Assembly: GCA_036725605.1 (NCBI GenBank)
Contig: DAIMDW010000007.1
Span: 88,388 to 152,387 of the forward strand
Length of the DNA stretch: 64,000 nucleotides
DNA from: a bacterium
Lineage (GTDB): Bacteria; Lernaellota; Lernaellaia; Lernaellales; Lernaellaceae
Reading direction: 5' to 3'
The position numbers and the translations under genes are program-made. A model generated the notes under the pieces. The model did no database searches. It was given only the letters and a program-made list of their open reading frames with translations, and was not told the origin of the DNA. Every line of letters begins with the position of its first letter. Within the stretch, counting starts at the first letter, position 1. This document shows, piece by piece, positions 49,297 to 49,440 of the stretch.

Positions 49297-49318
49297 GCCC
49301 CCCGCTTTCACGGGGGGC
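49297..49318 (-). terminator. Intrinsic terminator / attenuator hairpin (8-bp GC stem, 6-nt loop, 9-U tail) immediately 5' of the trpB2 RBS.
   Basis: Minus strand reads GCCCCCCG-TGAAAG-CGGGGGGC-UUUUUUUUU, then GGAGAAAGACACA-ATG (trpB2). Confidence 0.5.
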
Positions 49319-49365
49319 GCTGTTTGGTTCGATTGTCCGGTCGAGATTACATCAGTTCCACCCGC

Positions 49366-49440
49366 CTATATGGAGGTGTGGCGCCACCAATTGCCGTTGG
49401 CGGAAAAAGAAAGCGAGCAGTGACGTTCGATGCAATCCAT
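49366..49440 (-). CDS. trpL: Candidate trp leader peptide (MDCIERHCSLSFSANGNWWRHTSI*) with tandem Trp codons near its end.
   Basis: ATG at 49440. Tandem TGG-TGG at codons 18-19. Stop 47 nt upstream of the terminator hairpin. No obvious SD, which is the main weakness. Confidence 0.4.
   Translation of the reverse strand: MDCIERHCSLSFSANGNWWRHTSI

Follow-up and report, generated by a model that had tools for sequence, protein, structure and literature searches.

A 64-kb window of bacterial DNA (the whole stretch analysed here, from contig DAIMDW010000007.1) contains, on its minus strand and directly upstream of the stand-alone gene trpB2, a short leader that we consider very probably to be a ribosome-mediated, tryptophan (Trp)-responsive transcription attenuator controlling this monocistronic gene. 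Judged from its sequence, the element has the features that define the class of leader-peptide Trp attenuators. The mechanism itself is a textbook one; novelty lies in which gene is regulated, in which lineage this happens and in a start that is probably leaderless.

A probable leader-peptide and terminator switch upstream of trpB2

The predicted leader peptide is encoded by an open reading frame (ORF) of 24 codons on the minus strand (49440..49366), with TGG TGG at codons 18-19 (49389..49384), as an earlier reading of the window (the original prediction) had proposed. The ORF list contains this frame. Its ATG at 49440 is the sole possible start, given an in-frame TAA two codons upstream, and no Shine-Dalgarno sequence precedes it, in line with the earlier remark that none was obvious. 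The intrinsic terminator begins 47 nt past the leader stop and is followed by T9, then directly by GGAG and by the trpB2 ATG at 49274. Every checkable sequence detail of the original prediction proves accurate, and we recover the predicted GC hairpin with a U9 tail abutting the trpB2 ribosome-binding site, its stem being built from eight G-C pairs and one U-G pair (the fold energy is approximately -20 to -21.5 kcal/mol). The 5' neighbor, a gene for a FadL/TodX-like outer-membrane protein (49603..51012, plus strand), is divergent from trpB2, and the hairpin therefore belongs to a 5' leader and not to a gene end.

The regulated gene is a bona fide TrpB2. Its product scores 723.6 bits with the NCBIfam model NF009057 (cut-off 366) and 645.9 bits with TIGR01415 (cut-off 518.85), compared with 135.5 bits with the canonical trpB model TIGR00263 (cut-off 392). 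No other trp gene is found among the 30 larger ORFs of the window scanned with Pfam, and both results bear out the stand-alone TrpB2 of the original prediction.

Scans of genome and metagenome contigs with the TrpB2 protein returned one close relative (L001, the same contig as L081), the remaining sequences being at most 69% identical; intermediate relatives (71-82% identity) came from a protein homologue search and their encoding contigs. All 11 distinct relatives (73-94% TrpB2 identity) have a 24-31 codon ORF with two to four tandem in-frame UGG codons, a terminator and, at the end of the ORF, a GGCGGUGGG-like segment able to pair with the terminator 5' arm. The UGG UGG columns are invariant across 12 aligned leaders. 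In the relatives the Trp run reads WW, WWW or WWWW and varies by whole codons (2-4), the leader peptide outside this run is poorly conserved, and the terminator is located directly 5' of trpB2. Relatives lacking Trp codons at this position had been named beforehand as evidence that would speak against an attenuator; the UGG run is retained in all 11. Because the genes flanking the relatives' loci differ, the leader element travels with trpB2. Between the window and L001, we count 7 differences in the ∼155 nt from the leader ATG to the T tract, whereas the trpB2 coding sequences share 91.8% identity over their full length, a value that falls to 83.1% at third codon positions. The leader is thus under stronger constraint than near-neutral sites.

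To test for chance occurrence, our scan looked for small ORFs carrying two or more Trp within six residues and followed by a strict terminator within 120 nt. On both strands of the 64-kb window, the element described here is the only match. The same scan finds nothing in reverse-complemented TrpB2 upstream regions (0/155) and 12 matches in 1.28 Mb of other fetched loci (≤0.003 per 350 nt), several of which are genuine distant attenuators.

The terminator helix covaries. In 14 leaders it is 96.8% paired, four of its nine pairs are changed on both sides, and its covariation score is matched by 0/500 shuffles; controls in which the helix was slid are 45-53% paired. An antiterminator can form in its place. 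The original prediction held that a segment overlapping the leader stop can pair with the terminator 5' arm, and we find that GGCGGGTGG (49366..49358) pairs with 49317..49310 of this arm, forming seven pairs and one U/C mismatch (G49365..G49358 with U49310..C49317). Past a small internal loop the helix is extended by three pairs (CUG/CAG; C49355..G49353 with G49320..C49322). In the window, the antiterminator is the minimum-energy structure before the terminator 3' arm is made (-15.8 kcal/mol), irrespective of whether the 5' part is masked by a ribosome, and a long-range antiterminator helix is the minimum-energy fold of the corresponding transcript in 14/14 leaders. The folding check suggested with the original prediction thus returns mutually exclusive terminator and antiterminator structures for the window and for all 14 leaders folded.

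Most relatives have GGCGGUGGG as the complement of the terminator 5' arm, and there it encodes Gly-Gly-Gly at the end of the peptide. A GGCGGUGGG-like segment starts 13-19 nt past the last UGG in 12 of 15 leaders. Relative to the end of the stop codon, segment 2 (the 5' strand of the antiterminator; Table 1) terminates anywhere from 22 nt upstream to 9 nt downstream, and it is separated by 30-52 nt from the terminator, in the same 14 of 15 leaders; L172, with its inserted hairpin, is the exception. Counted in one register, antiterminator cells are paired in 82.1% of cases, compared with 43-53% when slid. This count understates the pairing, as 3 of the 14 alignment rows are out of register; MAFFT lost the segment 2 register for L174, L004, L082 and L098, two of which (L082 and L098) form their pairs with an offset of 3. 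The antiterminator is a conserved pairing potential, which covariation does not prove. Direct support exists for the sequence elements, for their conservation and for the alternative pairings.

Table 1. Features of the trpB2 leader and transcription unit, in window coordinates
Feature	Position	Strand	Remarks
Putative -35 hexamer TTGCAT	49470..49475	-	TTG equally placed in 11 core loci
Putative extended -10 TGtTATCCA	49448..49456	-	ends 7 nt before leader ATG
Leader peptide ORF	49366..49440	-	24 codons and TAG; translation MDCIERHCSLSFSANGNWWRHTSI
Tandem regulatory Trp codons UGG UGG (codons 18-19)	49384..49389	-	columns invariant in alignment
Segment 1, CGCCACACCUCC	49372..49383	-	weak pairing with segment 2 possible; a ribosome stalling on the Trp codons would cover it
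Leader stop codon TAG	49368..49366	-	read from sequence
Segment 2, antiterminator 5' strand, GGCGGGUGGAACUG	49353..49366	-	overlaps last base of stop codon; pairs with 49322..49310
Antiterminator 3' strand, CAGCGCCCCCCGU	49310..49322	-	includes 8 of 9 bases of terminator 5' arm
Intrinsic terminator stem-loop, GCCCCCCGU-GAAA-GCGGGGGGC	49297..49318	-	9 pairs: 8 G-C and one U-G
U9 tract of terminator	49288..49296	-	T tract in all relatives
trpB2 Shine-Dalgarno GGAG	49284..49287	-	read from sequence; outside hairpin
trpB2 coding sequence	47964..49274	-	436 amino acids, regulated gene; NF009057, TIGR01415 and Pfam PALP matches
Terminator-like hairpin 3' of trpB2	47908..47924	-	points to a monocistronic unit

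From these elements we infer translation of the leader, a leaderless start, the ribosome footprints and the response to Trp. Transcription would start at or beside the leader AUG and yield a leaderless mRNA, on which a ribosome would begin the 24-codon leader. By established E. coli toeprint distances, a ribosome shields ∼13 nt of mRNA 3' of the first base of its A-site codon. Under a shortage of charged tRNA-Trp, the translating ribosome would stall with the UGG codons (49389..49384) in its A or P site and protect the transcript to ∼49373, covering segment 1 and leaving segment 2 (49365..49353) free. Free segment 2 would pair with 49322..49310 and take up the terminator 5' arm, allowing read-through into trpB2. 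When Trp is plentiful, the ribosome would reach the UAG at 49368..49366 and protect to ∼49355, occluding segment 2; in the relatives it would translate through segment 2, which is located inside the ORF. With segment 2 occluded, the hairpin (49318..49297) and the U9 tract would form and transcription would end 14 nt before the trpB2 start.

Several observations weigh against this reading. The antiterminator covariation is not significant, with 43/500 shuffles reaching its score, and for the window 31/500 shuffles pair as well as segment 2; this segment is G-rich like much of the leader, so that shuffle tests on single loci discriminate only moderately. For the full transcript, folding favors the antiterminator over the terminator as the minimum-energy structure in 3 of 14 leaders. 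The leader ATG lacks a Shine-Dalgarno sequence, the putative promoter hexamers of the window (TTGCAT and TATCCA) are weak, with 3/6 matches each, and a promoter scan with the E. coli consensus did not call them, finding nothing on the minus strand. Finally, a hairpin between segments 1 and 2 (the 1:2 hairpin) is unsupported, leaving the behavior of the untranslated state and any pausing of RNA polymerase unexplained: RNAfold returns -12.6 kcal/mol for the window (z = -1.2 versus shuffles) and z-scores from -1.6 to +0.9 for the relatives, among which no conserved hairpin is found. Of the E. coli-type layout originally proposed, ribosome-mediated attenuation is supported, but not the four-segment form, as the 1:2 hairpin neither stands above shuffles nor is conserved. 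Since no 1:2 hairpin is supported, the default state in the absence of translation may be antitermination, unlike in the E. coli scheme, with the terminating ribosome occluding the antiterminator.

A putative promoter in register with the leader ATG

We compared the 50 nt upstream of the leader ATG, aligned at the ATG, in 11 core loci (L001 was omitted as a near-duplicate). All 11 loci follow a σ70-like pattern, TTGnnn, 16-18 nt, TAnnnn, 6-7 nt, ATG, which an A/T-rich stretch often precedes; the TA-initiated hexamer ends at -7 in seven loci and at -8 in three. The window has TTGCAT (49475..49470), 16 nt, TGtTATCCA (49456..49448), 7 nt, ATG. The corresponding arrangements are TTGACA, 17 nt, AACAAT, 7 nt, ATG in L166; TTGCAT, 17 nt, TAGAAT, 7 nt, ATG in L172; and TTGCCA, 16 nt, TATTCT, 6 nt, ATG in L171. 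Transcription normally begins ∼7 nt past the -10 hexamer. Because the conserved putative promoter is in register with the leader ATG, with its -10 element 6-7 nt upstream, we infer that the transcript probably starts at or beside the A of the leader AUG and is leaderless. A leaderless transcript would also best explain the missing Shine-Dalgarno sequence. Distant versions of the element, which come from AT-rich genomes, contain a purine-rich, Shine-Dalgarno-like sequence before the leader ATG.

Leaderless leader peptides of attenuators have been documented in Deinococcus deserti (PMC4007540), for the Corynebacterium diphtheriae ilvB leader peptide (PMC5784534) and for mycobacterial poly-Cys short ORFs (bioRxiv 10.1101/834739); within D. 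deserti, the trpEGD leader peptide is the single reported exception, being not leaderless (PMC4007540). The leader described here resembles these systems in having its putative -10 element 6-7 nt before the AUG and no Shine-Dalgarno sequence. In D. deserti, C. diphtheriae and mycobacteria the transcription starts have been mapped, whereas here the start is deduced from the promoter pattern in 11 loci.

An imperfect 26-nt palindrome (TGTTATCCAT-TAACGT-ATGGATTGCA, window 49431-49456, minus strand) overlaps both the leader ATG and the putative -10 element. L001 has an identical copy and more distant relatives lack it; the palindrome could act as an operator or form a weak hairpin at the transcript 5' end. 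We considered the inverted repeat ATCCAT-N6-ATGGAT, which spans the -10 element and the ATG, as a conserved operator or repressor site and rejected it, as only L001 among the relatives has it. The similarity between the window and L001 begins abruptly ∼40 nt 5' of the putative -35 hexamer (window 49480-49515, minus strand, at TCACyCCCAAC..TTGATTGCAAAGGT), and upstream of ∼240 nt before trpB2 the two sequences are unalignable. This edge suggests a rearrangement boundary or a different upstream neighbor in L001.

Alternative explanations and known systems

The leader ORF could be a chance ORF, and the hairpin an ordinary terminator or an insulator between divergent genes, with no Trp-dependent control. 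A 24-codon ORF lacking a Shine-Dalgarno sequence is indeed weak evidence when taken alone, many spurious ORFs occur in GC-rich genomes, and the 1:2 hairpin is not significant. However, the divergent upstream gene leaves the hairpin nothing to terminate, and 11 distinct relatives with differing neighborhoods have retained the ORF along with its in-frame UGG run and the terminator. The attenuator scan, with its 0/155 control matches and single match in the window, argues in the same direction. We regard a chance origin as extremely unlikely and, on the strength of the sequence comparisons, as effectively refuted.

Two further explanations retain a switch in the leader RNA. The UGG run and the G-rich segment could be bound by a TRAP-like protein, a tRNA or a ligand that switches between terminator and antiterminator independently of translation. 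The missing Shine-Dalgarno sequence would be compatible with such sensing, the conserved UGGUGG and GGCGGUGGG could represent recognition motifs, and T-box RNAs are found at other TrpB2 genes. A TRAP-type leader, in which 9-11 (G/U)AG triplets are spaced 2-3 nt apart, was rejected: we find only three triplets in 206 nt, none in TRAP spacing. A T-box leader was rejected as well, since RF00230 gives no match in the window under either an E-value limit of 10 or its gathering score, consistent with the earlier statement that T-box features are missing, and no other Rfam family matches the window at its gathering score. The UGG run moreover changes length by whole codons (two, three or four), always in frame with the ATG, and the stop codon keeps its distance even though the remaining peptide has diverged. 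A promoter placed in register with the ATG speaks for use of this AUG, and distant versions of the element carry a Shine-Dalgarno sequence before the leader ATG. Sensing without translation is accordingly quite improbable in our view. We assign a similarly small chance to a genuine attenuator whose released leader RNA or peptide also, or mainly, acts in trans. Leader RNA and leader peptide functions in trans have a precedent in Sinorhizobium rnTrpL/peTrpL (PMC6614838, PMC7298713), and the leader is more conserved than neutral sites. On the other hand, the peptide is poorly conserved outside the Trp run, conservation tracks the RNA pairing segments, and there is no evidence for a target. Ribosome-mediated attenuation remains our preferred explanation.

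The best Rfam match of the element is to RF00513, Trp_leader (20.8 bits, E = 0.21, 49395..49290; the gathering score is 41), and the relatives L169 and L098 reach 31.9-35.1 bits with this model; across the 64-kb window, no match to any Rfam family attains the gathering score. As these scores stay below the gathering score, we do not file the element as a member of RF00513. It nevertheless resembles E. coli and other enterobacterial trpL leaders: tandem UGG codons stand close to the end of a short ORF, a U tract follows a GC hairpin, and the terminator 5' arm finds its complement in a G-rich segment located upstream. Enterobacterial trpL controls trpEDCBA, whereas the element described here controls the single gene trpB2. 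Unlike E. coli trpL, it lacks a Shine-Dalgarno sequence (being probably leaderless) and a supported 1:2 pause hairpin, and in most relatives segment 2 is part of the ORF, where it encodes Gly-Gly-Gly.

In the trp attenuators of Corynebacterium and Streptomyces, conserved complementary triples are common to antiterminator and terminator, and an attenuator has been predicted upstream of C. diphtheriae trpB2A (PMC1262725). These actinobacterial systems have such triples in common with our element, along with terminators rich in GC, leader peptides that contain two or three UGG codons and, in one case, a trpB paralogue as the first gene (PMC1262725). They come from a different lineage, the nearest named relative here being Ca. 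Lernaella stagnicola (phylum Ca. Lernaellota), and the C. diphtheriae gene, named trpB2 and possibly a member of the TrpB2/TIGR01415 family, heads a trpB2-trpA operon. Our coverage of the literature, which is incomplete, yielded this one attenuator before a gene named trpB2 (C. diphtheriae trpB2A, PMC1262725) and none for stand-alone genes of the TrpB2 family. T-box leaders at trpB2 in Chloroflexota and Firmicutes are likewise terminator/antiterminator RNA switches that answer amino-acid supply and regulate the same gene; in a T-box, however, uncharged tRNA binds the RNA directly and there is no leader peptide, whereas the element described here uses one.

Genomic context and a possible wider family of trpB2 leaders

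The next gene 3' of trpB2 encodes an unrelated PMT_2 glycosyltransferase (45502..47862), and together with the terminator-like hairpin in Table 1 this suggests that trpB2 is transcribed as a monocistronic unit. Just after the trpB2 terminator we locate a strong σ70-like promoter match (TTGACA, 16 nt, TACGAT, 10/12 positions; window 47849-47876, minus strand), the -10 element of which overlaps the first in-frame ATG codons of the ORF at 45502..47862. The annotated start of the PMT_2 gene may thus be wrong, or its mRNA leader may be very short. Elsewhere in the window, and unrelated to the attenuator, a cluster of radical-SAM/SPASM proteins with unusual domain fusions is located at 90-7136, comprising a fusion with a glycosyltransferase domain (90-2726), a fusion with a carbamoyltransferase domain (3342-6029) and a further radical-SAM gene (6033-7136). 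A gingipain-type Peptidase_C25 with a propeptide and a C-terminal Ig-like domain (40214-42430, minus strand; E = 2e-55) and a CarboxypepD_reg/Plug TonB-dependent receptor (51413-53737) hint at a lifestyle of outer-membrane protein and nutrient scavenging.

A covariance model (R1) built from the 12 core leaders matches only the attenuator itself in the window. It also finds leaders that were not used in training 5' of trpB2 in L013, L098, L004, L089, L082 and L092, with E values from 2e-8 to 4e-4 (Table 2). The leaders of L004 and L098 contain a AGCGGGUG-type segment complementary to their own terminator arm.

Table 2. Leaders found upstream of trpB2 in other loci
Locus	TrpB2 identity to the window	R1 score (bits)	Leader peptide or remark
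L001 (= L081)	94%		leader identical but for one amino-acid change
L163	82%		MKDRTAHKPSNLTARNWWWCAYIKAERL
L164	79%		MEDRFSHTPFIDSARTWWRGVRIGRWELI
L165	77%		MNGFESHRCSPISLSGNWWRCVYIGGDGT
L166/L168	75%		MKGMQTHRSLSAAVMNWWWCAYIGGGGT
L169			MERTNDHLTSAASQLFWWWRFFIQGGGGN
L170			MNLSVVYIVASVRRDHRWWWRAHLRRGGT
L171 (Ca. Lernaella stagnicola, phylum Ca. Lernaellota)			MKCEHDYRANPAEITCKWWWWRSYGWRGGL
L172			MKTEGTRPASLDRTAQGLWWRWRPAGGCAVS
L173			MKATAPIANSLFVARRWWRRVIWRGGGP
L174			MERSFSADRSLFAARLWWWRGHIDAVGGA
L013/L087		45
L098		40.3	MNIGYRQITINRWWWCFSTHSG
L004 (Caldithrix metagenome-assembled genome)		37.6	MATFTHKTFSWWWCLRWRWVNNAFQ
L089		32.3
L082		32
L092/L093		26.7
L020		21	weak
L006		17.3	weak

In six loci from four lineages, one of them a Ca. 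Zhuqueibacterota metagenome-assembled genome, the attenuator is located ∼1 kb upstream of trpB2, with a gene for a protein of ∼285 amino acids, such as that at L013:1146-2000, in between (L013:952-2000, L087, L089:1232-2294, L006:1804-2952, L092:694-1756 and L093). This protein matches the O-phospho-L-serine synthase SbnI from S. aureus (NCBIfam, E = 4e-17; PDB ID 6nr6, E = 4e-11) and the archaeal serine kinase SerK (E = 6e-9), its NCBIfam scores for both being below the curated cut-offs, and has no Pfam match. The window itself contains no SbnI/SerK-like gene. Some TrpB2 enzymes have been reported to be O-phosphoserine-dependent, and a Trp-attenuated operon of an SbnI/SerK-like gene and trpB2, as suggested by these sequences, would fit such a dependence and provides a directly testable idea of which serine donor bacterial TrpB2 uses.

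A T-box core motif is present in 36 of 155 TrpB2 upstream regions, and RF00230 matches at or above its gathering score (93.5-120 bits) directly 5' of trpB2 in 12 of the 20 motif-bearing loci tested, which come from Chloroflexota, Firmicutes and others (L026, L029, L031, L032, L038, L053, L062, L073, L074, L109, L113 and L119). These T-boxes are presumably Trp-specific, and, assuming that they are, sensing of Trp status by a leader RNA looks like a recurrent solution for trpB2. The leader-peptide solution is the rarer of the two upstream of this gene.

We see an even chance that the leaders described here form one undescribed family of Trp attenuators that is dedicated to trpB2 and spans several phyla, being leaderless in the uncultured lineage whose named member is Ca. 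Lernaella stagnicola, and elsewhere (among others in the Ca. Zhuqueibacterota metagenome-assembled genome and in unclassified metagenomic bacteria) led by a Shine-Dalgarno sequence and placed before an operon of an SbnI/SerK-like kinase and trpB2.

Taken together, our analysis would broaden the range of classical leader-peptide attenuation to an uncultured lineage that has been poorly sampled and in which the leader ORF is probably leaderless. Such elements are unannotated in metagenome-assembled genomes because current Rfam models miss them at threshold. The role of stand-alone TrpB2 is debated, with indole salvage and O-phosphoserine-dependent Trp synthesis among the proposals. A conserved attenuator that reads the charging of tRNA-Trp would imply that more TrpB2 is wanted when Trp is short, pointing to a biosynthetic or salvage Trp synthase. 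If the wider family is real, it would provide regulatory evidence that bacterial TrpB2 is a tryptophan synthase induced by Trp starvation, which in some lineages would be supplied with O-phosphoserine by a dedicated kinase.

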